Shown: positions 4,817-63,709, numbered from the stretch's first letter. The stretch is DNA of 64,000 nucleotides from Candidatus Poseidoniales archaeon (GCA_003602415.1 QQSK01000013.1:10152-74151), one strand, 5' to 3'. Notes: generated by a model not told the origin, from the letters alone. Numbers and translations are program-made.

Positions 4817-4829
4817 CGCCCTACGGGCG
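4817..4829. promoter_or_regulatory. Hairpin CGCCC-TAC-GGGCG in the divergent intergenic region between the tRNA thiolase and roadblock genes
   Basis: It has a 5-bp GC stem and the same TAC/GTA loop as the other copies. Confidence 0.25.
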
Positions 4830-4885
4830 TTGTAGAAAGCCAAACTTCTTGAAGCCGGTTTCAACCTGAAGCAATTTGAGCGCGC

Positions 4886-5227
4886 ATGATGCAACGCATT
4901 CTGGCCGGATTCTCAGCCCTACCAGGAGCTGACCAAGCATACATCATTTCTCGTAGAGATGGCTTGGTTGCTTCAGTTGGAAAGAGAGGTCGTGCACCGA
5001 TGGTTGAACATGCCACCCAAATAATCCAAGCGATGGAAAGACTTGGACAAAACAAAGCCGTTGGAAGAGGGTTGGAGTTTTGGACAGAAGGAGAGGGAAT
5101 GCTTCTAGTAACTCGATTGAGCGAAGATGCAAGCCTGATAGTTTCTGGTAAGAAGGGTGGCAGGATAGCCAGGTGGCGACACGCCGTAGAATGCGATGTT
5201 GAAATGCTAAACTCGTTGATGAGGTGA
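4886..5227 (+). CDS. Roadblock/LC7 (MglB-like) domain protein
   Basis: It is 113 aa and carries the roadblock signature ...AYIISRRDGLVASVG... . Its stop overlaps the start of the next ORF by 4 nt (ATGA), indicating operon coupling. Confidence 0.55.
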   Translation: MMQRILAGFSALPGADQAYIISRRDGLVASVGKRGRAPMVEHATQIIQAMERLGQNKAVGRGLEFWTEGEGMLLVTRLSEDASLIVSGKKGGRIARWRHAVECDVEMLNSLMR

Positions 5228-8358: not shown

Positions 8359-8367
8359 GGTGAATAT

Positions 8368-8568
8368 ATGAGTTCAGTCTATCCTTTGTGGATTGAAAAG
8401 ATGATTTTCTTAGTTTTGGTAGCATCATCAGTATACGCTGGTATCGAATTGCAAAATCATCTCACAGGAGCAATGCTTTGGTTGTCATGGGTATGTGGAT
8501 TGCCTTTGGTAGTTCTAGTCACTACTGAAGGAATTGGACGCATAGTCCAAAAAATCAACACAAGATAA
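8368..8568 (+). CDS. Small 2-TM membrane protein (hypothetical)
   Basis: It is 66 aa with two hydrophobic helices. It starts 10 nt after the preceding gene on the same strand. Confidence 0.3.
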   Translation: MSSVYPLWIEKMIFLVLVASSVYAGIELQNHLTGAMLWLSWVCGLPLVVLVTTEGIGRIVQKINTR

Positions 8569-9717
8569 TCATTCACGAGTAGTGAAAGAGGATTCGATAA
8601 GACCCCAGAATCTTTGCCACGGTACTACAAATCTTAGCAGTGCCATTATTCCAAGGAATAATAGAGCGGAAATCACTAATCCGTAGGTCAGAGTCAATTC
8701 GATTGATTCTCCTACTTGAGCAGCCCATTGTGAGCCCGTAATTCCACTTACCCAATCCAGTAAAACCGAATGGAACCCTAAAGCGATAGTCGTGGTTACT
8801 ACAGTCAGTGATAGGAAAATCGCAGTATGTCTTAGGTGTCCATTGAGAATGTTATCCATTTGTGCGACGTATTCAGGGTCCTTCTTGCAAGACTCAGGTA
8901 ATCTGTATGCATACTCCAACTGGCGAATAACTCCAAATGCAGACTCCTGGAAAACCATCATCAAACATGCGATTAGAATTAGAGAAATTTGTTCTGCGGT
9001 AACCAAACCGAAAACGGTAGGTTCTGAAACAATGATCTCAAGAGTTGTTAATTGACTTCCATAACTTCCCAATTGTGAACGGATAAGAGGGAATGTCAAA
9101 ATTGCGTGAACACCCAAGAATAGTAGTGTAAATCCGATAGACCATGCTACACCTCTTCGAGATAGTCCCCAGATACCCTTGGTTCCGGTGATAATTGGTA
9201 GTAGGTAGAATGTTAGAATGATGAATGAGAGCATCATCAACAATGGCCACTCTAGTAGTCGAAGGACATCATCACCTGGAGCACTCCATCCATCACTGAT
9301 TAGTTGCCATGCGTATCCGAAAACAAATCTTCCAGCTAGAATTAGAATCAAGGTAATGATGAATCCAAGTTTGACTCTTTGCTGTACCTTTGGGGTCTGG
9401 AAGGCCAATAATGCCATTGAACCACCAAGCCCCAATCCCAATGCCATAGGAACATAGAATCGAGCAAGACCTTCGCTTCCCCCTCCAGTTAACCAATCGC
9501 CAAGAGGCAACTCTGTTCCAAGTCCGGATTCGAGGGTGTCGAATAATTGAGTGTGGTCTATACTGCCGACAACATATGTTGAAACCACTTCTAAATACAT
9601 CCAAACCAATGCTAGGGTGGCAAGTACCTGTAATGTGACAATTTGCCATTGAACACGCAATTGGCGCAAGTGGAGCGAGCGTGCTCCTTCTCCTTGAGGT
9701 GTTACTTCTCCTGCCAT
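8569..9717 (-). CDS. Polytopic integral membrane protein of about 8 TM helices
   Basis: Hydrophobic helices occur throughout. It is the last gene of the co-directional DUF4350/DUF58 string, 9 nt from DUF58. Confidence 0.5.
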   Translation of the reverse strand: MAGEVTPQGEGARSLHLRQLRVQWQIVTLQVLATLALVWMYLEVVSTYVVGSIDHTQLFDTLESGLGTELPLGDWLTGGGSEGLARFYVPMALGLGLGGSMALLAFQTPKVQQRVKLGFIITLILILAGRFVFGYAWQLISDGWSAPGDDVLRLLEWPLLMMLSFIILTFYLLPIITGTKGIWGLSRRGVAWSIGFTLLFLGVHAILTFPLIRSQLGSYGSQLTTLEIIVSEPTVFGLVTAEQISLILIACLMMVFQESAFGVIRQLEYAYRLPESCKKDPEYVAQMDNILNGHLRHTAIFLSLTVVTTTIALGFHSVLLDWVSGITGSQWAAQVGESIELTLTYGLVISALLFLGIMALLRFVVPWQRFWGLIESSFTTRE

Positions 9718-9726
9718 GAAATCACC

Positions 9727-10980: not shown

Positions 10981-10990
10981 CTAATTCACC

Positions 10991-16992: not shown

Positions 16993-17041
16993 ACAAGAGC
17001 CGAACAGGTCAAAGACCCCTTGGTCACTGGGCCAGTTTATC

Positions 17042-17058
17042 CGCCCCCATAGGGGGCG
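17042..17058. promoter_or_regulatory. GC-clamp triloop hairpin CGCCCCC-ATA-GGGGGCG immediately upstream of the sdhC start
   Basis: It is a perfect 7-bp G/C stem with a 3-nt loop. It lies 3-15 nt upstream of the candidate starts. Confidence 0.3.
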
Positions 17059-17061
17059 CGG

Positions 17062-17886
17062 TTGGTGTACTTAATGGGCCAAGGACTCAAACTTCCAATG
17101 CTTAACGGAATGGGCCGTACTGATAGAATAGACAAGTGGTGGGCTCAACCAGCAGTAATGGCTCTTGGATTATTTTTAGCCATCCTGTGGACCGTTTGGA
17201 GAGTTGTATTCTTCTCTGACCATATCGATTACAATGTCAATGGAGCACATGTGATATCTCCTATGTTTTCTCCAAACGTGTTGGAGTGGGATATGTTCTC
17301 TGGATGGGATCATCCATCCTGGGTTAATGCGGCAGTTCTGATACTGTGGATTCCATTTTCGTTCAGGGGTACATGCTATTACATGCGCCGAGTCTACTAT
17401 CGAACTTTCTTCGCTAGCCCGGTGGCTTGTTGGGTCGATGAGCCAGAGATTAACAAGAAGATTGGATACAAAGGCGAAAAGCGATTATTCATCGTTAACA
17501 ATCTTCACCGATACTTCCTGTACATGGTGATTCCAATTCTACTCATCAAATGGTGGGATATCACTCACACAATGTCATTCTCCAACGACGGATATGGCAT
17601 ATCTGGAGGAACAATCATCTTGACACTAGAAGCGGTTTGTCTAACATTCTATGTGACTTCGTGTCACGCTTTGAGACATTTAGCTGGCGGTATGTTGGAT
17701 AGATGGGCAAGCGGGATTTCAAAGGTTAGAGGGGCATTATTCTCTAAGATTAGTATCATCAACAAAGACCATGGTTTTTGGTTCTGGATTTCACTTACGC
17801 TTGTTTTCGTAGGAGATGCTTGGACCATCGCATGTTCTAAAGGAATAATCAATGACTTCAGCTTAGTCTTAATCGGAGGTGTCTGA
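17062..17886 (+). CDS. sdhC: Putative succinate dehydrogenase membrane anchor or cytochrome b subunit
   Basis: It is a 5-TM protein with several conserved His residues and sits immediately upstream of sdhA/sdhB, in the Bacillus-type sdhCAB order. The call rests on context and hydropathy. The start is ambiguous between TTG at 17062 and ATG at 17074. Confidence 0.4.
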   Translation: MVYLMGQGLKLPMLNGMGRTDRIDKWWAQPAVMALGLFLAILWTVWRVVFFSDHIDYNVNGAHVISPMFSPNVLEWDMFSGWDHPSWVNAAVLILWIPFSFRGTCYYMRRVYYRTFFASPVACWVDEPEINKKIGYKGEKRLFIVNNLHRYFLYMVIPILLIKWWDITHTMSFSNDGYGISGGTIILTLEAVCLTFYVTSCHALRHLAGGMLDRWASGISKVRGALFSKISIINKDHGFWFWISLTLVFVGDAWTIACSKGIINDFSLVLIGGV

Positions 17887-23070: not shown

Positions 23071-23112
23071 TAAAAAAAGCCCCCCACAGAGCCGAAGTTC
23101 TGTGAGGGGCAA
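23071..23112 (-). terminator. Intrinsic terminator-like hairpin followed by a T-tract downstream of the MC1 gene
   Basis: On the minus strand the sequence reads CCCCTCACAGAACTTCGGCTCTGTGGGGGG followed by CTTTTTTT. It lies 45 nt after the MC1 stop. Confidence 0.5.
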
Positions 23113-23156
23113 AGTCCCGCGAGGGCGTATCAGCATTGCATCAATGCAACCTTAAT

Positions 23157-23420
23157 TCAAAGGTGCTCGATTCCTTGCTTCTTTACGTTAGCCTTCTTGA
23201 TCTTGTCAGGAAGCCACGCTGGGCCGTTTGCAGGCTTGTCTACAACGTCGATACGTCCGGTGAAGACGTGGACTCTCTTGGTTCCACGCTCACGCAGACG
23301 GATGTCTGTGTGTCCGCGTGTAGCTGCTTTTAGAGCTGCTCCACGTGGTTGTCGGCTTGCAAAAACTTGGCTTGTGTCTTTTCCGTTCTCCATGAGAACG
23401 AAGTACTTCTTTTCACCCAT
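23157..23420 (-). CDS. Archaeal chromosomal protein MC1
   Basis: The protein is 87 aa. The stretch FASRQPRGAALKAATRG...IRLRERGTKRVHVFTG...DKPANGPAWLPDKIKKANVKKQGIE matches my recollection of Methanosarcina MC1. Confidence 0.75.
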   Translation of the reverse strand: MGEKKYFVLMENGKDTSQVFASRQPRGAALKAATRGHTDIRLRERGTKRVHVFTGRIDVVDKPANGPAWLPDKIKKANVKKQGIEHL

Positions 23421-45189: not shown

Positions 45190-45203
45190 ACCGATTCACT
45201 TCA

Positions 45204-46361: not shown

Positions 46362-46396
46362 TGATTAGAAAACCACCCTCACTCTCGGTGTAAAGC

Positions 46397-48652: not shown

Positions 48653-48662
48653 GTGAAATGAA

Positions 48663-49946: not shown

Positions 49947-49950
49947 TGAA

Positions 49951-51300: not shown

Positions 51301-51378
51301 TTGTTGCAAATAATCTAACGCTAGGTCCCAACTTAGGCGCTATGAACTGAATCGGATTTCAGTTAAAGAAAGATAAAT

Positions 51379-52815
51379 TCACAATGTTTGTTGTCCACCA
51401 ATTGGCATTGGAGTCAGCATTGAGATACTTTCTCCACGTAGGCTTGGTCCTGTACTGAAAGTTCCAAAGATTCCAATGTCTGCTATGTTATGAGATAGGG
51501 AGAACCAAGTTCTACCGTATGCATCAACTCGAATATCCAAGAAGTCTCCTAATCCTCCGCATCGATTGTATCCACAATCCACTTCGATATCGAGTGGGTC
51601 ATCATCTCCATTTAGTTGAACAGTTGTCAGTAATGGCGTTTCATTGAAAGCATCAGTAGCATAGGTCAGGTAAGCATTCCAAGTCTCGTCTTCACCTTCG
51701 GTCTCACCAACGTAACCGAATGCAACAGTTCCAGCATCTCCTGCTACAACTACTGGGAATCCAGTGCCTGAGAGGTTGATAGGCGGGGCGATCATTGTTG
51801 CATTGGACCAAGTGTCTCCTTGGTCCACCGAATAGGACCAGTATGGCATGTTGTCTAATCCCATCCACATAGCGTGAACATTACCTTCACTATCCACTTC
51901 CACTTGGGCTTCTTCAGCATTCCATGTGTCTGCAATTCCAGTTTCAGTAGTAGGTAAAACATGTTCAGTCCAACTAATTCCTGCGTTTGTTGTTCGGAAT
52001 ACAGAGTATCCATCGCCAGTGCATCCCTTGTTGCCACGGTAGAAATTTCCGTCTATACTTCCAACTAAGTGTGCTGAAAGGCCACCAGAGTTGCAAGATA
52101 TAGGAGCGCCTGATGTTTCAGGACCCCATGTTGCTCCTCCATCTTGGCTAGATGAACAGAGTGGATGTGGCGCATTTCCGTTGATACAGAACATCCAGGT
52201 TGTTGGATGGAATAGGGCAGGCATGTTGCTACTAGCAATCGTTTGATGGTCTTGGACGGAGTAAATTTGTGTGGCCACACTAGGACCATTCCAACTTGCT
52301 CCTTCATCATCCGACCATTCTACAGTCATTCCAAGCAAGGCATGCATATCGAATTTCATGATTCTGCTTGTCCATAGATCGACATAGATGTAGGGGTCGT
52401 TAGAGTTAGCAATCGGTGGATAATCAGGGTCGTAGATATTTTCGCAACTGTAATCCAATACGTCATGCATTCCAATTAGGTCACAAGAAATGATTGCTGT
52501 GGAGCCTGCAGGTCCATTGCCGTAGGAACTCATCATCATCATGTCACTTTGTGTTATTCCCATCGTTGGCTCAAAAGTTGATATTCCAATACCGTAGTAT
52601 GTGCCCATTGCTTCAAACGGCATATTACGCCCATCGAAACCGAATTCCTCATTGCCCCATGCATCTACTGCATCAGGGAAGTGATACCATGTTAATTCGG
52701 GTCTTTCAAAATCCCAAACAGGGGATGCTTCTACAACAACTTCACTTTCTTCCTCTCCAAAGCATCCAGCAAATGAAGCGCTGAGCATTAGCAATGTGAG
52801 GAATATAGGGCGCAA
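51379..52815 (-). CDS. Secreted BNR/Asp-box repeat protein (sialidase-like beta-propeller)
   Basis: It has a signal and lipobox (FAGCFGE). At least four Asp-box repeats are present: SDDEGASW, SQDGGATW, TTNAGISW, SVDQGDTW. Confidence 0.6.
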   Translation of the reverse strand: MRPIFLTLLMLSASFAGCFGEEESEVVVEASPVWDFERPELTWYHFPDAVDAWGNEEFGFDGRNMPFEAMGTYYGIGISTFEPTMGITQSDMMMMSSYGNGPAGSTAIISCDLIGMHDVLDYSCENIYDPDYPPIANSNDPYIYVDLWTSRIMKFDMHALLGMTVEWSDDEGASWNGPSVATQIYSVQDHQTIASSNMPALFHPTTWMFCINGNAPHPLCSSSQDGGATWGPETSGAPISCNSGGLSAHLVGSIDGNFYRGNKGCTGDGYSVFRTTNAGISWTEHVLPTTETGIADTWNAEEAQVEVDSEGNVHAMWMGLDNMPYWSYSVDQGDTWSNATMIAPPINLSGTGFPVVVAGDAGTVAFGYVGETEGEDETWNAYLTYATDAFNETPLLTTVQLNGDDDPLDIEVDCGYNRCGGLGDFLDIRVDAYGRTWFSLSHNIADIGIFGTFSTGPSLRGESISMLTPMPIGGQQTL

Positions 52816-53859
52816 TCAATCACCTCTGAACAAATCAGCACCCAATAATGGAAGAAGAACGGAGGCATCACCTTCAACACAAACATTTGGTGCTTCAGGA
52901 CGCATTTTGCCCCAACTGATAGCTTCTCTTAGACGAGCACCTGACAGACTACCGTCGTGTTCTGGGGCCGTTGTAATGTAAATTGCAGAATCTAAGCCTC
53001 CACGGTATTGATTCCACCAAATGACGTGGTGTTTGGAAATACCTCCTCCCACCATTAGTGCATTTGACTTTTCAACATCCCATGTAAGGTCGCTCATTAC
53101 CTGCTCATCGGCAAGTGTGTCGATATGGAAATCACGATATTTCTGTCTAAACATGAACAACTGCGCTCCAATACTGCCGTCTGTGATTCCAGGGATACAG
53201 ACTGGGATTTTGTTCTTGTAGGCCCAGTAAATTAGCGAATCTGGAGTTCCTATTCTCTTACCCAGCTCCCAAACTAGGTGAATTGAGCCGAAACCGATCC
53301 AGGCATCTGCACCTTCTTTTCCAGTCTCTTTTATTCTGTCATTTCGAATATCTTCGAGCACCGGCATTACGACGGCCTCGATAATTTCCCCATAACTAGA
53401 GTTGGGAACAATTACGTTTCCTAAACGCATTAGTTGATGCTCTCCAAGTTCGATATCATCCAATTCAAATGCGCCATGGTAATAGTGCTTGTAAGCTCTA
53501 GCGATATCATGGTCAAGCATTCCACATGTTGTTGAAACAACATTGAACATTTTCCTCTTTATCGATTCAACGAAAAAACCTCTGGTACCAGTTGCACACA
53601 GGCATGCAGGGAAAGATAACCAGTTTGTTACCTTGCTAGCATCAGCATCGACTTCATCGATTTCAGATTTCATGTCTTTGAGAATATCTCTAGCATAAGC
53701 TAGTTTGGTTGCAGTGAAACCGCCTGCGGTTGCCATTTGATCGATTAGCGATTTTGGATCGCTCAACTCTTGGAAGTTGTAGTCCTTGACCGGCTCGTCG
53801 AAAGACTCTGGGTCGATTGTCATGTGTCTAGCCGTGAGGCTTTCGCATATGAAACCCAT
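52816..53859 (-). CDS. dhs: Deoxyhypusine synthase
   Basis: Long stretches align by eye to human DHPS: [80 protein letters not shown] and AISWGK. Confidence 0.8.
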   Translation of the reverse strand: [347 protein letters not shown]

Positions 53860-53866
53860 GACTATG

Positions 53867-56152
53867 TCATGAGGATTCCATCTCGAGGATTTTATCTCTC
53901 AAAATTGCGGCCCTTTCGAAGTCTAATTCTAGTGCTGCTTGTTGCATCATGGCCTTTAATTCTTCAATTGAATAATTAATTTCTTCAATTGGTTGAGAAA
54001 TGTTGCTTGTAACCGATTCTGATGCGGTCCATTTACCTGCGCCTACCTTCAAATTACTAGCCCAATCTCCATCCTTCCGGCCGCCTTTAGATGCCACCAA
54101 TCTTTTGCCACCAGATGTTCCTGCAATGAGTTCATCAACATCGCTACCCATCTTGGGTAGAGCCTTCTGAATGGTAACTGGTGTGATGTCGTGTTTTTGA
54201 TTGTGAGCCATTTGTCTCTGTCGCCTTTCGAGAGTTTGTCTTATCGAAGCGGTCATTGGTGGACTCATTGAATCAGCATACAAAATTACAGTTCCATTAG
54301 AATTTCTAGCCGCTCTTCCAATCGTCTGAAGCAGACTTCTTTCATTTCTAAGGAAACCTTGTCGATCAGCATCGAAAATTGCAACTAAACTAACTTCAGG
54401 TATATCCAATCCTTCTCGTAACAGATTGATTCCTACAATGGCATCTATGTGGCCAATTCTTAGAGCATTGATAATTTCGGTTCTCTCAATGGTATCGATT
54501 TCAGAATGTAGGTAGTGGGCTTTGATTCCCATTTTGTTTAGATATTGAGAGACTTCTTCTGCAAATTTAATGGTTAATACAGTGACTAAGGCTCTTTCAC
54601 CTTTAGCAATTCTAGCATTTATTTCAGAGAGAAGGTCTGCTACTTGTCCTTCAGTGCCTCGAACTTCAATTGTAGGGTCCAAAAGTCCAGTAGGTCTAAT
54701 CTCCATTCTTGGAATGTCTTCAATCATCTGAAGCATATCGTACATGCTTTCAGCATCTGGATGTTTTTTGCTATATTCTGGCTCTTCAACACCGCCGCCT
54801 CCGGCAGCATGTCGAAGTCCTAATGGTGCATCTTGTCCTGTCGTTTCACACAAGTGGAGTAATTCTCTTTCACCTGGAGTTGCGCTAACATAAACCATCT
54901 GTGGGACTAAACTCTGAAACTCTCTAATTTTTAATGGCCGATTATCAGCGGCAGAAGGTAATCTAAATCCATGTTCAATGAGATTCAATTTTCTACTGCG
55001 GTCCCCTCCATACATCCCTCCAACTTGAGGTAAAGTGACGTGAGACTCGTCCATTATCACAAGGAACTTTTCAGGGTCACCGTGGAATTGTTTAGCTGCA
55101 GCAGCAAAGAAGTCTAGTAAGCAGTACGGTCTTTCACCAGGTTGTCTGCCGTCGAAGTGCATAGAATAATTTTCTACAGCAGTGCAATGCCCTATTTCTC
55201 GTAGCATTTCGAGGTCATATTGAGTACGTTGTTCTAAGCGATGCGCCTCGAGTTCCTTCCCTTCACTTTTCAGTTCAGCAACTCTGCCATCAAGTTCATC
55301 CTCTATGCTTTCAAGTGCATTCTCAAATCTCTCTGGACTGACCATGAAGAATTCTTTGGGATGGATCCATGCTTCATCTAATTCGTCCAATACTTCCCAT
55401 GTCACAGGGTCACAAATTTGGATATGCTCGACTCCATCAAAACCAAACCTTACTCTCAAAGGGTCGTCACGACTCGGCATCCATACGTCTAGATTTTCTC
55501 CTCGTAATCTCACCTGTCCTCTCTCTAAATCAGTTGAGGTTCGCCCATATTGGAGCCCTACCAACTCTCGAATTAGGTCGATGGGTTCTATCGATTGTCC
55601 TACGTGTATTCTACAATGGTAAGAAAGGAAGGTTTCTGGCGCGTTAAGTCCGTAGATACAAGATACAGAAGAAACAACAATACAATCGGGTCTGCTAACC
55701 AAGCTAGCCACAGTTGCAAATCTTTCTTGTTCAATTCTTTCATTGATTGACAACTCTTTGTCAATATACAAATCTCGTTTAGGGAGGTATGCCTCTGGTT
55801 GATAATAGTCGTAGTGGGAGACAAAATATTCAACGCCATTCTCAGGAAACAATCCTGCCATTTCTTGATACAATTGTCTAGCCAATGTTTTGTTGTGACT
55901 CATGATCAAAGTTGGAATATTTAGTCTCTCAATTAGGTGCGCCATTGCGAATGTTTTACCCGACCCAGTGACGCCTAAAAGCACACATCTTTCTTGTGAA
56001 TTTTCCAATTGAGAAATCAATTTTCCAATTGCTTTTTCTTGGTCACCTGCAGGCTGATGTTCTGAGTGAATTTTGAACTTTGAAACACTAGGAGATAGCT
56101 GGTCCTTGACCGCCCCTTCTAGGGCCTTCGAGATGTCGAAGGGATCGCTCAT
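53867..56152 (-). CDS. uvrB: Excinuclease ABC subunit B (UvrB)
   Basis: It has Walker A LLGVTGSGKTF, helicase motifs, and a C-terminal UVR domain (ELDFERAAILRDKILE). At 761 aa it is longer than E. coli UvrB. The linker before the UVR domain is extended. Confidence 0.85.
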   Translation of the reverse strand: MSDPFDISKALEGAVKDQLSPSVSKFKIHSEHQPAGDQEKAIGKLISQLENSQERCVLLGVTGSGKTFAMAHLIERLNIPTLIMSHNKTLARQLYQEMAGLFPENGVEYFVSHYDYYQPEAYLPKRDLYIDKELSINERIEQERFATVASLVSRPDCIVVSSVSCIYGLNAPETFLSYHCRIHVGQSIEPIDLIRELVGLQYGRTSTDLERGQVRLRGENLDVWMPSRDDPLRVRFGFDGVEHIQICDPVTWEVLDELDEAWIHPKEFFMVSPERFENALESIEDELDGRVAELKSEGKELEAHRLEQRTQYDLEMLREIGHCTAVENYSMHFDGRQPGERPYCLLDFFAAAAKQFHGDPEKFLVIMDESHVTLPQVGGMYGGDRSRKLNLIEHGFRLPSAADNRPLKIREFQSLVPQMVYVSATPGERELLHLCETTGQDAPLGLRHAAGGGGVEEPEYSKKHPDAESMYDMLQMIEDIPRMEIRPTGLLDPTIEVRGTEGQVADLLSEINARIAKGERALVTVLTIKFAEEVSQYLNKMGIKAHYLHSEIDTIERTEIINALRIGHIDAIVGINLLREGLDIPEVSLVAIFDADRQGFLRNERSLLQTIGRAARNSNGTVILYADSMSPPMTASIRQTLERRQRQMAHNQKHDITPVTIQKALPKMGSDVDELIAGTSGGKRLVASKGGRKDGDWASNLKVGAGKWTASESVTSNISQPIEEINYSIEELKAMMQQAALELDFERAAILRDKILEMESS

Positions 56153-56163
56153 ATTCTCAAATC

Positions 56164-56889
56164 CTAAGGTAAGTATAATCCACCGTTGACATGGATAACC
56201 GAGCCGGTGATGTAGTTCGATTTTTCACTAACTAAGAACGAAACAGTTCCTGCAATATCTTCGGGCGTTCCAATTCTTTTCAAAGGAACTTCCTGTATTC
56301 TACTCGCTCTCTTTTCAGGACTATCTCCTGCCAAAATATCAGTGTCCACAAATCCTGGTGCTACAATATTTACTCGCTTTCCTTCAGGTCCAAGTGCCTG
56401 TGCTAATGAGCGAGCCCAAAGTGCTAGAGCAGCTTTTGATGCTGAGTAATCTGCACCATGCGCCGAGCCTCTGGTTCCTAACTGGCTGCCAATTACGCAA
56501 ATCCTTGCATTATCTCTAAGGCTGGATTTTACTGACTCCCACACAAGAAAGGCTCCTTCGAAATTAGTTGCCATGGTTCTACGCAGATGTTCAAAATCGA
56601 GTGATTTAGCATCTATTCTATCATAGCGTCCATGATTCAAGACCAAAACATCCACTCCTTCACTAACCCATGGGTGAGTGGCTAACAATGCGACTTCTCT
56701 AGCATCCGTCACATCGCAGTTAGCAGCTACAGCATCAACTCCTGAATCTCTTATCTCATCAACTACCATTTCTGCAGGTTTGGATGAATTGCAATATGTG
56801 AGTAGGATTCTGTATCCATCTTTTGCTAAGCGCTTGGAAATCGCAGCTCCAATGCCGCGGCCCCCTCCGGTCACAATTGCGGTGCGCAT
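56164..56889 (-). CDS. Short-chain dehydrogenase/reductase (SDR)
   Basis: It has the Rossmann motif TGGGRGIGAAI and the catalytic YSASK motif. Confidence 0.7.
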   Translation of the reverse strand: MRTAIVTGGGRGIGAAISKRLAKDGYRILLTYCNSSKPAEMVVDEIRDSGVDAVAANCDVTDAREVALLATHPWVSEGVDVLVLNHGRYDRIDAKSLDFEHLRRTMATNFEGAFLVWESVKSSLRDNARICVIGSQLGTRGSAHGADYSASKAALALWARSLAQALGPEGKRVNIVAPGFVDTDILAGDSPEKRASRIQEVPLKRIGTPEDIAGTVSFLVSEKSNYITGSVIHVNGGLYLP

Positions 56890-56919
56890 GTACTCCGTAC
56901 GAAGGCATCTCTCAATAAC

Positions 56920-57297
56920 TCACTGGAGGAATTGTGCAAGTTGAGGAGGTTGCCATCCTTCTGGCTTCAGAACCTTTCCATCATCTCTTCGAATGACTTT
57001 TCCATCGACAAGTTTGGCCATGTTGGACCTATGGACTTCATTGAAAGCATCGTCATAGATGTCTTGCATTCCATGATTGATTATCGTTCCAGCAAGGATG
57101 TATCCTATGTCTGCTAATGCGTCCAAAACTTCGACTAAATCTCCGGCCCTAGCCGCTTCAGCATACTCTTGAACTTCTTCAGTTAGCAATTTAATTCTCA
57201 ATTCAATCAACTCATCCGGTCCTAATCCTGGGCTTTCTAGACGAGGGATTTCGAAGGCTTGATTGAATTCTAGCAATGACTTCACTATTGGATTCAT
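56920..57297 (-). CDS. MazG-like / all-alpha NTP pyrophosphohydrolase domain protein
   Basis: IELRIKLLTEEVQEYAEAARAGDLVEVLDALADIGYIL resembles the MazG/HisE EExxE...D motifs. The ORF track's start at 57483 overlaps the UbiA-family gene by 163 nt, so the internal Met (MNPIVK) at 57297 is preferred. Confidence 0.4.
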   Translation of the reverse strand: MNPIVKSLLEFNQAFEIPRLESPGLGPDELIELRIKLLTEEVQEYAEAARAGDLVEVLDALADIGYILAGTIINHGMQDIYDDAFNEVHRSNMAKLVDGKVIRRDDGKVLKPEGWQPPQLAQFLQ

Positions 57298-57320
57298 AGT
57301 GTAAGGGGGTGCTCGCCGCT

Positions 57321-58127
57321 CTATGAAAGTTGCATTGCCATTAGGAGAATCCATCCGGTGGCAGCGTGTGAACGGAACCACCAATTCTGGAACTGAGAAC
57401 CGGATGCTACCAAAACGCCAACAACCAAGGCCAGTGAGGCGACTGTACCGATCACGGAAATGGTTGAGAATGCAAAAGCCCATACCGGAATCGAAAGCAA
57501 CATCACAGTCATTGTGACAGGTGGTTGGAATCTAGCAGGGAATGAATTTACTCCGTTTTCCCTATCGCTATCTATGTCCATTTGTGCATAACCCAAATCG
57601 AATGCAGCGATCCATACCAAAACTCCTAGAGATACGAGCATTAAATCTGGATACCAGGAATTTGATGAAATCTCTCCGGTGATTGCTACCCATGCACCTG
57701 CAGGCGCTAAAGCAAGACAACCACCTAGCCACCAATGACAAAGCCAAGTGAATCTTTTGAGGTACGGATAAATCACAAATGCTGCGACAGGAATCGGTGA
57801 CAAGTACAAGCAGAGAGGATTTAGCATCCATGCTCCTCCAACTAACATAATTAAGAAAATAGCACAAAGACTCCAAGCGGTTTGAAGAGACATAGTGCCG
57901 GATGCAAGATGTCTTCCAGCAGTCCTTGGGTTTGCAGCATCGATATCTCTATCGATAATACGATTCAATCCCATAGCCAACCCCCTAGCTCCAACAGCAG
58001 CAATCATTATCCAGGTCAATTGGAGAATAGTTGGATCTCCTGCCATGTACGCGCCAATGAATACAAATGGTAGGCTGAATAAAGTATGCTCAATCTTGAC
58101 GAATGATGCTACTTGTTTCAAGTCCAT
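57321..58127 (-). CDS. UbiA-family aromatic or isoprenoid prenyltransferase
   Basis: It is an 8-TM protein with an Asp-rich motif LNRIIDRDIDAANPRTAGR (NDxxDxxxD). Its start overlaps the upstream UbiD-family stop (ATGA). Confidence 0.65.
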   Translation of the reverse strand: MDLKQVASFVKIEHTLFSLPFVFIGAYMAGDPTILQLTWIMIAAVGARGLAMGLNRIIDRDIDAANPRTAGRHLASGTMSLQTAWSLCAIFLIMLVGGAWMLNPLCLYLSPIPVAAFVIYPYLKRFTWLCHWWLGGCLALAPAGAWVAITGEISSNSWYPDLMLVSLGVLVWIAAFDLGYAQMDIDSDRENGVNSFPARFQPPVTMTVMLLSIPVWAFAFSTISVIGTVASLALVVGVLVASGSQFQNWWFRSHAATGWILLMAMQLS

Positions 58128-60103
58128 TACATCACCAAATTATTCGGCCAAGGCGGCAAATCAAATCTCTCGATTGATTGCAAAGTCTCTGGGTCGTGCA
58201 TAGTAATTGCTGGCCAACGTCTTACAGGAGTTGGTCCATCATTAGATGGGATTGGTGTTGTTGCATCCCAGAAAATTCTACCATCTTCGACGATGAAATC
58301 TCTCTCAACAGCGAACCTTGAAGTGAGTTGCCAAAGCAGTCTGCGATTGGCTCCCTCGCCGTGTAAATCAAGGTCATTATCGGTAACAAATAACCATCGT
58401 AATTCATTTTTGGAGTCCAATTGCCAAATTGAATTTCTCAATTGGTTTATTTTCTCTCTTTGGGCCTTTGCATCTTCCTCATTTGGCCATTGTGCACCAG
58501 TTCTTGGTTCTGGTCTTCCTTGTATGTCTGTAGTTACAACGAGCATTGATTTTCGAAGCAATAAACAATCTTCAACATCTTCAAGTTTTGATATTTCCGA
58601 GAGTAGTGAATCACTAATTCCGGGGACCTCAGCTTCTCCCTTTCTCCAGGGAGGACACTCATCGATAGAAGAGCCTTCCAATGGCGTTCCGCTACGAGGA
58701 TCCGCCGGCACCAATTTGGTGGCATCGATGATTAACTTCGAATGTACATTTTCAAATGTAGATGCGGGTTCAAGTGAATCACTAACCATTCCATCGATTA
58801 TTGTGATGTCACTATTGGGATCTACTCTATCATTGAGAGCATCAAGTAATGCTTCTAAATCTCCAGGCTTATCATCGGTAGCGATTAAGATCTTCAAGAA
58901 CATCATTTGACCAGCGCCTAGAAGTCCCAAACAGGTTTTGCGAGCTTGTCTTGGATATCGCTGCTTACTTTTGACGATGGCTAAATTGTGGAAGCCGGTC
59001 TCAAGTGGTAAATGCAAGTCAAGAACGTCTCTGTGTTGGAATGACAGAATCGGTCTGAATTGCTTACCAATAGCCTCTCCCAAATATCCATCTTCCATAG
59101 GAGGTTGACCTACGATGGTTGCGGGAAGAACAGCGTTTTTCCTTCTGGTTATCGCAGTGACATTCAGTACTGGGTATTGGCCGGTAAGAGAATAGAATCC
59201 AAAATGGTCTCCAAAAGGACCTTCAGTTCTAGTTTGGGTTGCATCGACCCATCCTTCAATTACAATATCTGCATCTGCAGGTACCAACAAATCTTGAGTT
59301 AGCGCTTTTGTAATCCTTAGTCTTCTTTTACCTAAGAATCCGGCAAACATGTATTCCTCTAAATTATCTGGCAGTGGCGCGATTGCAGAGAAGATGAGTT
59401 CTGGAGGGCCTCCAATACAAATGGCAACGGGCATTTTTCCATCAGGCCAGGCGGCAGCATGGTCTGCTCCATGTTTGTGAATTTGCCAATGAAGGCCCAC
59501 TTCTTTGGGACCGTAAATTTGACTACGATACATGCCCAAGTTGTGTTCTCCTGATTTTGGGTCTTTGGTCACAACTAATGGTAAGGTGATATATCTGCCA
59601 CCGTCCATTGGCCAGGTTTTGGGGATTGGTAATTTTGTGACGTCAGTTTCCATTTTTACACGTTGGCATGAACCTTTCCTGACCCTTTTAGGAGGCATAG
59701 AAATGGCGTCTCTGAGTAGTGGCAATCCAGTCCAAGGCCTCTTCACAATTCCTCCGATATCAGGTTTCATCAATGCAACCAATCTATCACCGACTTCTGT
59801 TGAATGAGATGCTCCAAGTGCACGCAGAGTTCGATCATGAGATCCAAACAGATTCATTGCAAGAGGTATTTCACTGATGTCACCGTTTGGAAGGCGTGGT
59901 TTTTCAAAAATTACGGCCGGTCCGCCAGTTTTCACTAACTTGTCCGCAATGGCTCCGGCCTCAAGTTCTACGTCTACGGGTTCTTCGATGCGTAGTAACT
60001 CGCCATTCTTCTCCAAATGTGCGAGCCAGCGCGTCAGATTTACCCAGGCCATGCCTATTCCTGTGATATCTGCTTCATGAATACTTGTTCTCTGCCGACT
60101 CAT
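58127..60103 (-). CDS. UbiD-family (prFMN-dependent) decarboxylase with a ~170-aa C-terminal extension
   Basis: The N-terminal ~490 aa look like UbiD (VDVELEAGAIADKLVKTGGPAVIFEKP...). At 658 aa it is longer than typical UbiD enzymes. Confidence 0.65.
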   Translation of the reverse strand: MSRQRTSIHEADITGIGMAWVNLTRWLAHLEKNGELLRIEEPVDVELEAGAIADKLVKTGGPAVIFEKPRLPNGDISEIPLAMNLFGSHDRTLRALGASHSTEVGDRLVALMKPDIGGIVKRPWTGLPLLRDAISMPPKRVRKGSCQRVKMETDVTKLPIPKTWPMDGGRYITLPLVVTKDPKSGEHNLGMYRSQIYGPKEVGLHWQIHKHGADHAAAWPDGKMPVAICIGGPPELIFSAIAPLPDNLEEYMFAGFLGKRRLRITKALTQDLLVPADADIVIEGWVDATQTRTEGPFGDHFGFYSLTGQYPVLNVTAITRRKNAVLPATIVGQPPMEDGYLGEAIGKQFRPILSFQHRDVLDLHLPLETGFHNLAIVKSKQRYPRQARKTCLGLLGAGQMMFLKILIATDDKPGDLEALLDALNDRVDPNSDITIIDGMVSDSLEPASTFENVHSKLIIDATKLVPADPRSGTPLEGSSIDECPPWRKGEAEVPGISDSLLSEISKLEDVEDCLLLRKSMLVVTTDIQGRPEPRTGAQWPNEEDAKAQREKINQLRNSIWQLDSKNELRWLFVTDNDLDLHGEGANRRLLWQLTSRFAVERDFIVEDGRIFWDATTPIPSNDGPTPVRRWPAITMHDPETLQSIERFDLPPWPNNLVM

Positions 60104-60112
60104 TCAAGTCCC

Positions 60113-60131
60113 GCCTCCCCTACGGGGAGGC
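60113..60131. promoter_or_regulatory. GC-clamp triloop hairpin GCCTCCCC-TAC-GGGGAGGC between divergent UbiD-family and GGR genes
   Basis: It has an 8-bp stem. It ends 1 nt before the GGR ATG and lies 10 nt upstream of the UbiD-family start on the other strand. Confidence 0.3.
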
Positions 60132-61358
60132 ATGGCGAGTTGCGATGTTCTGGTTATCGGGGCTGGGCCCGGGGGAGGTTCAGCCGCCCTTCATTCAGCA
60201 AGGTCTGGCCTCAGTACAATGATAGTTGAAGCAGACCCGGAGGTAGGGGTGCCGGTTCATTGTGGCGAATGTTTGTCACAGATGGCTATCGATAATCTGG
60301 ATCTAGATTTACCCGAGCACGTTGTAGCCCTTGATTGCAAGGGTATACGGGTAATTTTCCCTGACGGTACTGCAAAACTATTGACGGAGAAAGGATATGT
60401 TTTGGAGAAGCATAAGTTCGAACAATGGTTGTGTGATGAAGCTGTAAATCAAGGTGCAAGTTTGCACTTATCACACAAGGTTACTTCTATGGAAAGAATT
60501 TACAATAGCGAAAATCAATTTGTCAATTGGAAAATAGACGGTAAAGGAAATGAATTTCCAATTGAATGTAAAGCGGTTATTGACGCTTCTGGAGTCACAG
60601 GAGCAGCCACAAAATTACTCGATATGGGTACTGAAGTAGAAGTGATTGCAGGGTTCCAATATGAAATGACGGATGTTGAAAATGACGGTTATCTGGACTT
60701 TTATTTGTGGCCAGAATATTCACCTCATGGATATGTATGGATGATACCTAAGAAAGGTGAAAGAGCGAATGTTGGTTTGGTGACAACCGACAAAAAAGGA
60801 GCGATAAAATATCTCGACAAATTTGTTGAAGATACTTACCTGAAAGGCAAGGGAATCCAGAACCCAGAATGGCGAAAGCCTGGAGTCAAACCAAGACCAT
60901 TTGGAGGGACTATTCCAATTTCAGGGCCTCGTGAAATCACAACGGGAGATGGACTAATTCTTGTTGGTGACGCTGCTGGCTTTACTTCTCCATTATTCGA
61001 AGGAGGCTCTCATCTGGCATTGTGGTCTGGAAGACAAGCCGCATTGACAATTGCTGCTGCAATCGAAGAAGGCGACTTATCCGATTCTAGAATGCAAAGT
61101 TATGTCAAAGCCTGGAAGAAACGATTCCCTCCTTACCACAAAATACTGAAGGGCAAAACATCGCTTTATGATTTGAGCGATCAGGAGTTGTCAAACATGG
61201 CACATTGTCTTCCAGAAGAGCTAGGCTCCATGTCTGTGCTCGATAAGATTTGGATTGGCCTGAAAATTTTGGTTAAACATCCATTCCTCTACACCAAAGG
61301 CGTGATTAGTGTACTACTTTCATTCGGTTACTCAAGGGCTAAGCATTTCGGTTGGTGA
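60132..61358 (+). CDS. Geranylgeranyl reductase (FAD-dependent digeranylgeranylglycerophospholipid reductase family)
   Basis: It has the FAD motif CDVLVIGAGPGGGSAA and the GD motif GDAAGF. Its 408-aa length is typical of archaeal GGR. Confidence 0.7.
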   Translation: MASCDVLVIGAGPGGGSAALHSARSGLSTMIVEADPEVGVPVHCGECLSQMAIDNLDLDLPEHVVALDCKGIRVIFPDGTAKLLTEKGYVLEKHKFEQWLCDEAVNQGASLHLSHKVTSMERIYNSENQFVNWKIDGKGNEFPIECKAVIDASGVTGAATKLLDMGTEVEVIAGFQYEMTDVENDGYLDFYLWPEYSPHGYVWMIPKKGERANVGLVTTDKKGAIKYLDKFVEDTYLKGKGIQNPEWRKPGVKPRPFGGTIPISGPREITTGDGLILVGDAAGFTSPLFEGGSHLALWSGRQAALTIAAAIEEGDLSDSRMQSYVKAWKKRFPPYHKILKGKTSLYDLSDQELSNMAHCLPEELGSMSVLDKIWIGLKILVKHPFLYTKGVISVLLSFGYSRAKHFGW

Positions 61359-61362
61359 ATTA

Positions 61363-63669
61363 ATGGAATCTTTGTTGATGCCATTGGCTGTTTTTGTTGC
61401 AGCATGGGTCACATTCCGTCCGGATGCTAGATTCACATGGATTCTAGCATTACCATTCTTAGTTCTTGCAATGATGTTTACAATGAATTATGATTCGATT
61501 CATTTGGTTGCTTGGTATGGAGGAGAAGAATTACCTCTAAGATACAGGTTTGCAGCAACTTGGGCAGCAAGAGAAGGTCCAATTTTACTCTGGGTAGCAT
61601 GGATGGCATTGTTGTCAATTATTTGGAGAAAACCACTGCAAGAAGAATCTCCAGATGCTCATTTATTCAGATTAAGACTGATGAACGGGTTTGCACTAAC
61701 CTTGCTGTTAGTAGCTTGGATATTGCAGCCCTTCAAAGCAGCAGAAGGTAGAGGTCCTGGGCTCAATGAGTTATTACAGACCGACTTGATGGTCATTCAT
61801 CCTCCCCTAATTTTCCTTGCATACTCACTTTGTCTGACTCTGACTTTTATTGCAATTTCTTCAATTTTCACAAATTTTGATGGAATCAAGAAACGTTTGA
61901 TACAAGTCGCAAGACCTGCATTCTTCTTCTCAACATTAGGTATCGGATTAGGTGGTCTATGGGCGTATTTGATACTGGATTGGGGGGGATATTGGGCTTG
62001 GGACCCAGTTGAAACCGGCTCACTGCTACCATGGATCTGCTTAGTGATGTTACTACATCTCCGAACTAGGCCTGGCAAAACCTCAGACCATATGTGGGCT
62101 GGAGTTGCAATGGCATGCGGTGCCCTTGCATTATTCGCCACGATGGTTACTAGAGCAGGTGGTGTATGGGCGGTTAGCGTCCATACATTCGTAGTAAATT
62201 CAGCAGGAACACCTCCAAATGATGTATTTGGGAGGATGATGGTCATACTTTCAGATATCAGCGGGATAGAAGTGATGGTTTATCTGCTCGGAATTATTCA
62301 ACTAATCGGAATTTTCCTTGCATCCAGACTTGGTTTTGAGTTCTCAAAATATTGGTTATTTTTACTTCCAATAACTGCAGTATTAGGGGTTATTGGAGGA
62401 GGAGATGTCTTGGATGGTATCCCTCCAACCTTGTTGGTGGTTATCGCTTTAGGTCCATTTGTAGAATCGGGGATCAAGTCATTGCCCGAGGGTCATGATT
62501 GGATTTGGTTTGCTATTCCTGCAGTAATGGTTGCTCTCAGATTTATACACGGTATGGTATTGTTTGAATTGCTATCTTTGCTCTTCGCCTTTGGATTAAT
62601 TTTCGAAGAAGACAGATTCAAAGCATGGGGTTGGGCTACAGCAGGAATTACATTGTTCCTTGCAGCATCTTGGTCTGGAATGTTAGATATTTGGATATGC
62701 GCAATCGGCATGTTAGCTTTCATCTCTCCGTGGTTCTTTGTCGAAGAATCAGAAGATAGCAAATTTTCATTCAAAGAGAGAAAGTTTCAGCAAAGAATTG
62801 CTCTATGGACTCCGGTTGTAGCTGTCGGATTGTATCTAATTCTGACTCTTGTAATCTTAATGTCAAGTATAGATTCAATTCAATTTGCAGCGCATGAATT
62901 GTATGGCGCCCCATTCCTAGCAGCGATGATGTTTGGTTTAGTCATGTGGAGCATGCGTAAGAACCCAACTAGGGTATTCTACCTGATGTTGTCTTTGCCA
63001 CTTATTCTGATATTTGCTTGGCTCTTTGGTAATTCATTAGGATATGATTCGACAGATATTCTGGGTGCTTCATTGAGCCGAGGACAAATAGGCATGGTAG
63101 TTTTAATTCCAGCCCTATTGGCTTTACCTGCAACGATTTCTTTGGTGAAAGAAAATACAGGAAAGAATCAGATTTCGATGTTGGCTCACCTGATACACTT
63201 AGGGTTGGTATTGATGATTATCGGGCATGTCATGAGTACGACAATCATCGACAGAGGGACATTTTCTCACAGTGTAACTCTGATTAAAGATGAGAAGGTC
63301 GAATGGGAAGGTTATGAATTTGAATTTGTTGAAGTAGTGACCGAAACAGATGATCTGGAAGTCGGTGATGGCTATCTTGGTGCCGTAATCAATGTGTATG
63401 AAGATGGTGAGTTAATCGAAACCGTTGAACCAGGTGTGATTAGGTTCGATACTCGTTCACGCTCAGAAGTCGACAGAGTCAGTATGTGGCATGGAGATTT
63501 GGTTTTGATTATGGATGGCACTCAAGCCCGCTCTTTGATGGAGGGTAGTGATTTGGTTAGAATCATGGTTTACGATTTGCCAGGAATACATCTAGTGTGG
63601 GGTGGTTGGACTCTCATGTTATTGTCTAGTTTGTCAATTTGGATTAACCGTGGAGACCCAACTGATTGA
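61363..63669 (+). CDS. Cytochrome c-type biogenesis / heme-handling protein of the CcmF/CcsA family
   Basis: It is a polytopic membrane protein with the Trp-rich WWD signature WGGYWAWDPVE. The ORF track's start at 61309 overlaps GGR, so Met 61363 is preferred. Confidence 0.55.
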   Translation: MESLLMPLAVFVAAWVTFRPDARFTWILALPFLVLAMMFTMNYDSIHLVAWYGGEELPLRYRFAATWAAREGPILLWVAWMALLSIIWRKPLQEESPDAHLFRLRLMNGFALTLLLVAWILQPFKAAEGRGPGLNELLQTDLMVIHPPLIFLAYSLCLTLTFIAISSIFTNFDGIKKRLIQVARPAFFFSTLGIGLGGLWAYLILDWGGYWAWDPVETGSLLPWICLVMLLHLRTRPGKTSDHMWAGVAMACGALALFATMVTRAGGVWAVSVHTFVVNSAGTPPNDVFGRMMVILSDISGIEVMVYLLGIIQLIGIFLASRLGFEFSKYWLFLLPITAVLGVIGGGDVLDGIPPTLLVVIALGPFVESGIKSLPEGHDWIWFAIPAVMVALRFIHGMVLFELLSLLFAFGLIFEEDRFKAWGWATAGITLFLAASWSGMLDIWICAIGMLAFISPWFFVEESEDSKFSFKERKFQQRIALWTPVVAVGLYLILTLVILMSSIDSIQFAAHELYGAPFLAAMMFGLVMWSMRKNPTRVFYLMLSLPLILIFAWLFGNSLGYDSTDILGASLSRGQIGMVVLIPALLALPATISLVKENTGKNQISMLAHLIHLGLVLMIIGHVMSTTIIDRGTFSHSVTLIKDEKVEWEGYEFEFVEVVTETDDLEVGDGYLGAVINVYEDGELIETVEPGVIRFDTRSRSEVDRVSMWHGDLVLIMDGTQARSLMEGSDLVRIMVYDLPGIHLVWGGWTLMLLSSLSIWINRGDPTD

Positions 63670-63694
63670 AATAGGGACGGTTGGTCGCCGAATT

Positions 63695-63709
63695 GCCCCC
63701 GTAGGGGGC
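63695..63709. promoter_or_regulatory. GC-clamp triloop hairpin GCCCCC-GTA-GGGGGC upstream of the FKBP gene
   Basis: It has a 6-bp stem. It lies 16 nt upstream of ATG 63725 and 26 nt after the CcmF-like stop. Confidence 0.3.

Follow-up and report, generated by a model that had tools for sequence, protein, structure and literature searches.

What are the short, GC-rich palindromes that recur just upstream of gene starts in the genome of a marine archaeon, and do they act as DNA or as RNA? The question is raised by a 64-kb window (the whole stretch of DNA that was analysed, 64,000 nucleotides) from a Candidatus Poseidoniaceae (Marine Group II, MGII) archaeon, in which a first-pass annotation had picked out a recurring hairpin with a CCCC-GTA/TAC-GGGG core. 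Poseidoniales are among the most abundant archaea of the surface ocean. To our knowledge they have no cultured, genetically tractable member, and what is known of their promoters, leaders and mRNA metabolism therefore rests on inference. The hairpin family is specific to the 5' regions of genes, adjoins the ribosome-binding site and does not consist of terminators. The way its members vary shows that selection acts on base pairing within one strand, with the polarity fixed as C to G and the loop rich in AT. Our leading but tentative reading, to which we assign a probability of about 0.45, is a stem-loop in a transcribed 5' leader or intercistronic RNA, placed directly against the ribosome-binding site.

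Six copies lie in the window, which has a G+C content of 43%:

4817-4829, no strand assigned: CGCCC TAC GGGCG, at the centre of a 123-nt divergent gap between a TtuA-like thiolase gene (minus strand) and a gene for a 113-amino-acid (113-aa) protein (plus strand)
17042-17058, plus strand: CGCCCCC ATA GGGGGCG, ahead of the membrane subunit that precedes sdhA
35441-35455, plus strand: TGGGCC GAA GGCCCA, ahead of a CARDB gene
46335-46351, no strand assigned: TGGCCCC GTA GGGGCCA, in the divergent gap between a FolC-like gene (minus strand) and a signal-peptide peptidase gene (plus strand)
60113-60131, no strand assigned: GCCTCCCC TAC GGGGAGGC, abutting the ATG (60132) of the geranylgeranyl reductase (GGR) gene in the divergent gap with UbiD
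63695-63709, plus strand: GCCCCC GTA GGGGGC, between a CcsA-like gene and the FKBP gene

All six are perfect palindromes of 13-19 nt. They stand where the first-pass annotation had placed them, except that the copy given as starting at 46336 is one pair longer on each side. Its impression that such palindromes stand out is also borne out: 7 hairpins in the window have a 3-nt loop on a stem of 5 bp or more whose four inner pairs are G/C, against 0.84 +/- 0.93 (maximum 4) in 200 dinucleotide-preserving shuffles, an excess of about eightfold. The seventh match, CAGGCC CTG GGCCTG at 47454-47468, lies deep within a gene and looks like a chance occurrence unrelated to the family. Five of the six occurrences of CCCNNNGGG in the 64 kb belong to the hairpins, whose predicted stability as RNA ranges from -7.7 to -18.6 kcal/mol. 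Little beyond a CCC/GGG core is common to nearly all copies. Stems vary from site to site and reach outside the CCCC core (GTTCCC, ATATCCC, TGGGCC; some copies have GGCC or TTCCC cores), and the loops include GAA/TTC, ATA/TAT, TAA/TTA, TTTA, TTAA and TATA besides GTA/TAC. The core as first proposed thus holds in its CCC/GGG part and is too narrow for loops (GAA, ATA, TAA, tetraloops) and stems (TGGGCC, GTTCCC) alike. An Rfam scan of the whole window at gathering score and a tRNA scan of the window both gave no matches.

The window is very compact, with some 3-4% non-coding DNA, and all six hairpins fall in that fraction once two over-extended open reading frame (ORF) starts (CARDB, FolC) are corrected. 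Four are in divergent gaps, two in tandem gaps and none in a convergent gap, and about 6 of the 15 promoter-bearing gaps (roughly 40%) carry one. The comparison with relatives began from the window's GGR protein, which has an exact match on marine metagenome contigs. A scan of one genome per species with GGR supplied 39 loci from Candidatus Poseidoniaceae/Poseidoniales (79-94% GGR identity), together with 10 DPANN loci that served as controls; a metagenome scan with the CDC48 protein added 80 more, covering the 4817 and 17042 sites, and eight loci around the Lhr helicase cover the 35441 and 46335 sites. The census of perfect G+C-clamped hairpins with 3-4-nt loops was taken over the window and 119 MGII loci, 2.2 Mb in all, of which about 7.5% is non-coding. 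Related loci are numbered with an L below. The census counts take in orthologous copies and therefore describe the lineage rather than independent events.

Hairpins proved about ten times denser outside genes than inside, where a random scatter would have given equal density. Outside genes the polarity is absolute, 5'-C-run...G-run-3', with 103 hairpins C-run first, 0 G-run first and 4 mixed. Inside genes the corresponding numbers are 57, 44 and 26, and several of these internal C-first hairpins are actually upstream of mis-called starts. Divergent gaps hold 49 hairpins (1.57 per kb) and tandem gaps 44 (0.63 per kb), the latter at a median of 25 nt past the upstream stop and 15 nt from the downstream ATG, while the 99 convergent gaps (18.1 kb) contain no C-first hairpin where about 15 would be expected. 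The DPANN control loci, of similar G+C, have no intergenic enrichment. Base pairing also continues beyond what the search demanded: of 58 unique hairpins, 60% have a Watson-Crick pair at stem position 6 from the loop and 53% at position 7, with about 25% expected. Furthermore, relatives carry hairpins at slots that are empty in the window, namely before a PRC-barrel gene, before a conserved AACCTTCTAAACC block and at the PRA-PH and deoxyhypusine synthase (DS) starts. K-mer enrichment and positional promoter-word profiles were used only qualitatively because they are dominated by orthologous redundancy. The description of a dispersed cis-element confined to gene 5' regions thus stands, with six of six window copies non-coding and convergent gaps devoid of C-first copies.

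All six window sites are kept at orthologous positions, and at several of them the two arms change together. The FKBP hairpin is present in 27 of 27 orthologues, with a compensatory variant TCCCC GTA GGGGA (L030), a GTT loop (L034) and a tetraloop (L046); in L040 it reads CCCCCC TAC GGGGGG, the loop flipped from GTA to TAC and the outer pair swapped. Two candidate outer helices at this site, TCGCC/GGTGA, which would sequester the Shine-Dalgarno (SD) sequence, and ATT/GAT, were dropped for want of covariation, ATT/GAT being mismatched in 12 of the 27 orthologues. The GGR site retains GCCTCCCC (TAC, TTC, TTA or TTAC) GGGGAGGC in about 28 of 39 Poseidoniaceae species, and has an unrelated, non-palindromic sequence of exactly the same length in L032, L033, L035, L037, L040 and L047. 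In four species a second hairpin, ATGCCCC TAC GGGGCAT, stands against the UbiD start. At the TtuA slot the variants, compensatory changes among them, include CGCCC TAC GGGCG, ATCCCCC TTTA GGGGGAT, CCCCC TTAA GGGGG and TCCCCCC GTA GGGGGGA; about nine lineages have a non-hairpin sequence, and all 36 versions align gap-free with no change in length. Hairpin-less species have partly palindromic remnants.

The widest variation is at the sdh site, where 32 orthologues display about 12 different complementary stems (CGCCCCC, CGACCCC/GGGGTCG, GTTCCC/GGGAAC, ATATCCC/GGGATAT, CTCCCC/GGGGAG, TCCCAG/CTGGGA and others) around loops of 3-7 nt in either orientation, including an inversion of ATA to TAT. RNAalifold on nine triloop orthologues gave 7 pairs, of which 3 are compensatory and 0 broken, and the outermost pair runs through the series C-G, U.G, U-A on the sense strand. 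These counts were made in loop-centred windows because a MAFFT alignment of the whole sdh leader left the stems out of register. The minimum free energy (MFE) z-scores of the sdh site against dinucleotide shuffles are weak (mean -1.3); such shuffles keep C-runs and G-runs and are therefore a poor null here. The comparison of sense with antisense MFE (20 vs 10) is suggestive only. Five stem variants occur at the CARDB site, among them GTGGGCC GAA GGCCCAC, GTAGGCC GAA GGCCTAC, CGTGGGCC ATA GGCCCACG and AGGGCC ATA GGCCCT, with 2 compensatory pairs, 2 sense-strand G.U pairs and 0 broken pairs; L143 and L147 lack the hairpin, and L148, a short Logan contig that begins inside the CARDB gene, is uninformative on its 5' end. 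Four loci (the window and L140-L142) have an identical FolC/peptidase hairpin. L143 carries CGGCCC CAAG GGGCCG, with a compensatory outer pair, L144 has none, and L145, in which the genes are rearranged, has CCCCC TTTA GGGGG 6 nt before the peptidase ATG. Loops are 3-4 nt long at the GGR, FKBP, TtuA and FolC sites. Two of the checks that the first-pass annotation had suggested, conservation in relatives (six of six sites) and covariation (the sdh and CARDB pairs above), thus came out in its favour. A further hairpin, weaker and richer in AT, is possibly related to the family:

53855-53873, minus strand: CTCATGAC ATA GTCATGGG, with the UvrB stop in the 5' arm and the DS start in the 3' arm

It contains one sense-strand U.G pair and is kept as CATGAC NNN GTCATG in close relatives. 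In L036, L038 and L039 the junction has GC-clamp versions, CATGTCCC TAA GGGACATG and CATGTCCCC CCTA/TAT GGGGACATG. This hairpin could mediate translational coupling.

Where the hairpins stand relative to start codons is equally regular. Clear SD sequences (of the GGTGA/GAGGTG type) precede the internal genes of operons and also several first genes; such motifs peak at -20 to -1 and accompany about half of genes. At the FKBP, sdh and CARDB sites the hairpin is 0-10 nt upstream of the SD. The sdh copy lies 49 nt past the aldehyde dehydrogenase stop, 5 nt before SD GGTG (17064-17067) and 15 nt before the membrane-subunit ATG (17074); the FKBP copy is 25 nt past the CcsA-like stop, 3 nt before SD AGGTGA (63713-63718) and 15 nt before the ATG (63725). 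Across lineages both sites retain the succession of hairpin, 0-5 nt, SD and ATG. The CARDB copy, between a 123-aa gene (minus strand) and that of a 1665-aa CARDB secreted protein (plus strand), is 10 nt before SD AGGTGAT (35466-35472) and 23 nt before the corrected start, a GTG at 35479 followed by a signal peptide. Elsewhere the hairpin lies 0-6 nt upstream of an SD-less start and sometimes overlaps it, at GGR and, in relatives, at UbiD, FolC, DS and the PRC-barrel gene. The FolC start is 46328 or 46283, and may be 46283 (MSLGLERV) instead of 46328 or 46361. For UbiD (minus strand) the true start is probably the ATG at 60052 (MAW...) rather than the called ATG at 60103; MAW... is kept in relatives, and TTCATG lies exactly 29 nt upstream. 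The genes beside the six hairpins have no common function (tRNA thiolase, sdh operon, CARDB surface protein, FolC/peptidase, UbiD/GGR, FKBP). The neighbourhoods assigned in the first pass were essentially right, apart from the "roadblock" identity of the 113-aa gene, which Pfam left unconfirmed.

In the RNA reading that we favour, the elements would act in the transcript and be selected for pairing rather than for a particular sequence. They would be transcribed either as the 5'-most segment of a leader or as an intercistronic segment reached by read-through from the upstream gene. Between the FKBP and sdh hairpins and the genes upstream of them there is no T-run, and read-through transcripts would therefore contain these hairpins. 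A stable hairpin of this kind could serve as a 5' "plug" that leaves little or no single-stranded tail for 5'-to-3' exonucleases or 5'-end-dependent nucleases, could insulate the ribosome-binding site from upstream sequence, and, through the C-first order, could hold the anti-Shine-Dalgarno-like arm apart from the purine-rich SD. Transcription at every site, and an effect on mRNA stability or translation, are what we infer. Several features favour RNA. The hairpins keep step with the ribosome-binding site instead of holding a single promoter register; the wobble intermediates of the sense strand would appear as mismatches if read on the opposite one; and the junction of the UvrB stop and DS start leaves little promoter room yet carries a related hairpin. 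So short a stem forms easily in RNA, whereas a DNA duplex scarcely allows it. In Bacillus, roadblocks at the 5' end stabilise mRNA by shielding it from the 5' exonuclease RNase J1 (PMC3997798), and the beta-CASP family is represented in archaea by the 5'-3' exonucleases aCPSF1, aCPSF2 and aRNase J (PMC8501993).

The position of the hairpins relative to predicted transcription start sites (TSSs) also bears on the choice between RNA and DNA. Many SD-less genes have a classical TATA hexamer (TTTATA, TTTAAA) whose first base lies 27-30 nt upstream of the ATG, which implies that leaderless mRNAs exist in these genomes. Calibration on these leaderless genes places the TSS about 29 nt after the start of the TATA hexamer. 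Canonical TATA words upstream of hairpins are too few for a distance histogram and are clear only at FKBP in L040, where the slot holds a canonical GATATATT 27-29 nt before the hairpin. Three boxes in the window bear on the question:

63665-63672, plus strand: TATA-like box ATTGAAAT, with hexamer TTGAAA at 63666; adding 29 gives 63695, the first nucleotide of the FKBP hairpin
17009-17016, plus strand: putative TATA-like box TCAAAGAC (C[CG]TCAAAGACC in all lineages), 27-33 nt upstream of the sdh hairpin start
60102-60109: box ATTCAAGT, 3 nt upstream of the GGR hairpin

The TCAAAGAC box is invariant in 32 lineages and its spacer to the hairpin is variable; the predicted sdh TSS is about 17038. 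By the same rule the TSS falls 0-4 nt before the hairpin at FKBP and sdh, and likewise at the peptidase gene if GAATAA is its TATA box, while at CARDB it is placed inside the loop. Alternative AT-rich boxes 29-34 nt upstream of hairpins, for example GAATACTT at 60079 and GAATAA at 46302, are indistinguishable from chance. The notion that the loop itself is the initiator was rejected: it fits the CARDB site and the TtuA/113-aa gap and fails at GGR and FKBP. The 22 nt between ATTGAAAT and the FKBP hairpin (63673-63694, AGGGAYGGTTGGTCGCCGRAWT) match the hairpin in conservation over 25 species, which is not usual between a TATA box and a TSS, and the segment may be a regulator site.

Some of the same evidence weighs against an RNA function. 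Complementary loop pairs account for 19 of 30 unique intergenic triloops in three classes (GTA/TAC 9, GAA/TTC 5, ATA/TAT 5; a further 2 are TAA/TTA), and both loop orientations occur relative to the same gene at FKBP and sdh. Such complement-closed loops look like a property of DNA, or like an absence of selection on the RNA loop. The first unpaired position of the stem extension, taken over all sites, is neutral, with G.T against A.C at 4 vs 4. Very stable hairpins that abut or include the start codon, as at GGR and DS, are expected to hinder rather than help translation. GGR and UbiD have a TATA-like hexamer 29 nt before the ATG, hairpin or not, and no SD, a layout that points to leaderless mRNAs, in which case the hairpin occupies the spacer from -19 to -1 and is not transcribed. 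The TtuA/113-aa gap has a BRE (B recognition element)/TATA-like GCGCAAAAC-TTCTTGAAG and a conserved TTGAGC at TATA + 29 downstream of the hairpin, which is thus at about -61 to -49 of the predicted TSS. The TATA assignments were made by eye with one calibration, and the TSSs are predictions.

These points feed the principal rival, a GC-rich, structure-prone palindrome that would be part of the promoter architecture at the DNA level, within or beside core promoters. Its place would be the spacer that separates TATA box and TSS in leaderless genes, the surroundings of the TSS, or the interval between two TATA boxes set back to back; by resisting melting locally, by forming a hairpin or cruciform, or as the target of a structure-recognising chromatin protein, it would tune initiation, start-site choice or directionality. 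We consider this distinctly less likely than the RNA reading, yet a serious rival, and a good deal speaks for it. GGR, UbiD (L036-40) and FolC (window, L140, L141) have a shared layout of 8-nt box, 3 nt, 17-19-nt hairpin, 0-6 nt and ATG, with the box hexamer 27-30 nt before the ATG at GGR and UbiD and about 33 nt at the window FolC, set beside the 27-30 nt of leaderless TATA boxes. Hairpin-less orthologues keep exactly the same spacer length, the hairpin is midway between two conserved boxes in the TtuA/113-aa and FolC/peptidase gaps, and the loops flip within complement-closed classes. The chromatin protein MC1 is encoded in the same genome, and MC1 prefers bent DNA and four-way junctions. 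Yet the register relative to predicted TSSs ranges from about -60 to +20, unlike that of known promoter elements tied to one position; a duplex would have only short arms, 5-8 bp, from which to extrude a cruciform; and a GC clamp in the melting region would weaken a promoter. The sense-strand series C-G, U.G, U-A and the G.U pairs would be A.C mismatches on the other strand, and there are hairpins at the UvrB/DS junction, with its little promoter room. A bolder possibility, that MGII has a structure-defined gene-start signal beyond current models, we regard as unlikely. As a cap-like 5' hairpin, it would turn SD-less mRNAs into protected, "pseudo-leaderless" messages with the AUG at a junction of double and single strands; as a core-promoter DNA hairpin or cruciform, possibly read by MC1, it would set start-site choice or promoter directionality.

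Flipped loops and perfect stems could also arise without function. Template switching ("quasipalindrome correction") would make and perfect GC palindromes and invert their loops, and its products would persist harmlessly in 5' intergenic DNA where length alone is constrained. Loop inversions at orthologous sites (GTA to TAC at FKBP in L040, ATA to TAT at sdh), gain and loss that preserve length, with partly palindromic remnants, stems that are usually perfect and not merely stable, and the lack of a common gene function all agree with such a by-product. It has, however, no mutational explanation for a C-first polarity of 103 vs 0 outside genes (57 vs 44 inside), and it leaves unaccounted for the empty convergent gaps (0 of about 15 expected in 18 kb), the persistence of the same slots with different stems although the flanking proteins are only 31-65% identical, and DPANN controls of similar G+C that lack intergenic enrichment; on balance we find it quite improbable. 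More improbable still is an operator at which a global homodimeric regulator would read duplex CCCC-N3-GGGG near TSSs. Such a regulator would explain why the CCC...GGG core and the polarity are common to nearly all copies, and the range of about -60 to +20 is where archaeal regulators bind. But the half-site spacing runs from 3 to 7 nt at one orthologous site (sdh), positions outside the core vary freely and yet symmetrically within each copy, some copies have GGCC or TTCCC cores, and the target genes are functionally unrelated. The palindromic transcription-factor site that the first-pass annotation had offered as one option fares poorly for these reasons, its outer stems differing while remaining complementary. 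A structure is favoured over a dimeric site because the stem tolerates 3-7 nt loops and flips, as a dimeric protein site would not. Lastly, terminators or 3'-end stabilisers of the upstream genes would share the C-first, G+C-rich stems and 3-4-nt loops of bacterial intrinsic terminators, and two window copies do lie 25 and 49 nt past a stop codon. We give this next to no credence: no copy is followed by a T-run, four of six are in divergent gaps with no upstream gene, none is in a convergent gap, and the genuine hairpin-plus-T7 after the MC1 gene shows the contrast. Archaeal termination moreover relies on U-tracts and not on hairpins (PMC8501993). The earlier judgement that these are not Rho-independent terminators is confirmed.

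Several other features of the window and its relatives were recorded along the way. The TtuA/113-aa gap holds a module of CAGTTGG(A/C)AAAAT (4788-4800), hairpin, GCGCAAAAC-TTCTTGAAGGC (4842-4856), TTGAGC (4876-4881) and ATG that is common to very distant MGII lineages (L084-L139) and persists where identity of the 113-aa protein falls to 31-39%; its right half looks like a BRE, a TATA box and an initiator for an 8-nt leader. In the same lineages (L084-L139) a stem GCGCGGAAAAC...(~20 nt)...CCGCGC followed by a T-run lies between TtuA and the 113-aa gene, only where the gap is 200-270 nt, and may be a small RNA gene or a terminator. A palindromic TTTCAATTGAAAA(T)TTTAAAT...GCAATTGG, that is, a TATA word flanked by CAATTG, occurs about 28 nt before SD-less ATGs. 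It is found upstream of TtuA (L084, L088, L095, L100, L102, L106, L123, L125 and others) and, in L014-L049 near 17.3 kb, upstream of an enoyl-CoA hydratase gene. These motifs look like strong, possibly bidirectional leaderless promoters. An 87-aa ORF at 23157-23420 (minus strand) encodes the archaeal chromatin protein MC1 (Pfam 1.9e-27), in a region where the longest-ORF map had wrongly placed plus-strand ORFs. It is followed by a C-first hairpin GCCCC-TCACAGA...TCTGTG-GGGGGC (23079-23110) and T7 (23072-23078), a bacterial-style terminator, and there is a small CCC GCGA GGG stem at 23113-23126. As called, 50 nt (61309-61358) are shared by GGR and the 786-aa CcsA-like (Cytochrom_C_asm) gene that follows it, and the true start of the latter may be further downstream. 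The 210-nt "convergent gap" contains an unlisted, hydrophobic-looking ORF of about 66 aa (8369-8569, plus strand) with GAGGTGAATAT ahead of it, probably the gene of a small membrane protein.

Taken together, the observation is solid, and its mechanism is more likely to lie in RNA than in DNA. A conserved, structure-selected element offers a testable handle on how messages start or are protected in Poseidoniales. It has practical yields as well, namely a calibration of TSSs (TATA hexamer start + 29), better start-codon calls and a way to mark the 5' limits of genes in metagenome-assembled genomes. On the DNA-level reading, if true, this would be an unusual archaeal case of a structure-dependent core-promoter element. 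Were the structure-defined signal to prove true, a general, lineage-wide layer of expression control would have come to light from sequence alone, in a group that is uncultivated and abundant worldwide.

How does the family compare with known systems? A search of the Marine Group II/Poseidoniales literature on hairpins, palindromes, promoters and leaderless mRNAs returned no description of it. Extra-stable DNA mini-hairpins include C-GNA-G triloops of the d(GCGAAGC) type. Most triloops here are, on one strand, GTA or GAA closed by C-G, which resembles that type; the family differs in that ATA, TAA and tetraloops are also common, and it is known from sequence alone. A survey published in 2026 reported perfect inverted repeats enriched about 50 bp upstream of archaeal start codons (PMC13155455). 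It likewise concerns inverted repeats at archaeal gene 5' ends, and differs in treating arms of at least 10 bp across all taxa, so that a short-armed, polar, AT-looped family is left undescribed. An RNA thermometer or ribosome-binding-site switch was considered and rejected: at SD-led sites the SD is outside the stem, the stems are perfect and G+C-rich, and the AUG is inside only at UvrB/DS.

Repetitive extragenic palindromes and the mosaic elements built from them (REP/BIME) are likewise short, G+C-rich intergenic palindromes in moderate-G+C genomes, and the letters GTAG appear in many copies here (C GTA G). REPs are high-copy, imperfect palindromes of 20-40 nt with a GTAG or CGTC end tag, linked to REP-associated tyrosine (RAYT) transposases (PMC3733652). 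They lie mostly at gene 3' ends, whereas the present family is confined to 5' regions; its copies are perfect, 13-19 nt long, share only CCC/GGG and evolve in place at orthologous slots, and GTAG is found only across the loop and 3' arm of some copies. No transposase was found among the part of the window proteins that was scanned. Mobile repeats similar to miniature inverted-repeat transposable elements (MITEs) are excluded because the copies share no sequence and because presence and absence alternate with no change in length, hairpin-bearing and hairpin-less orthologues aligning gap-free. The family resembles intrinsic terminators in stem composition, polarity and loop size. These are excluded because of the missing T-run and the absence from convergent gaps, and differ further in that copies here lie in divergent gaps with no U-tract; a terminator scan of 45000-64000 listed none of the hairpins there. 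Archaeal palindromic operators resemble the family in lying near predicted TSSs, and a fixed-spacing dimeric operator is argued against because the spacing varies, the outer positions covary symmetrically and there is no regulon.

The nearest comparison for a transcribed stem-loop is with the 5' stabiliser stem-loops of bacteria (ompA-type hairpins and RNase J1 roadblocks). The present family differs in its archaeal host, its lineage-wide spread, its strict C-to-G polarity and its AT-rich loops of 3-4 nt. Many copies, moreover, abut or include an SD-less start codon (the stem abuts or contains the ATG at GGR and at DS in L038), and the 5'-end position is here a prediction. At three sites, FKBP, sdh and CARDB, the two have in common a stable, G+C-rich hairpin at or near the predicted 5' end of a leader, set upstream of the SD and not occluding it; the SD there follows 3-10 nt past the stem.

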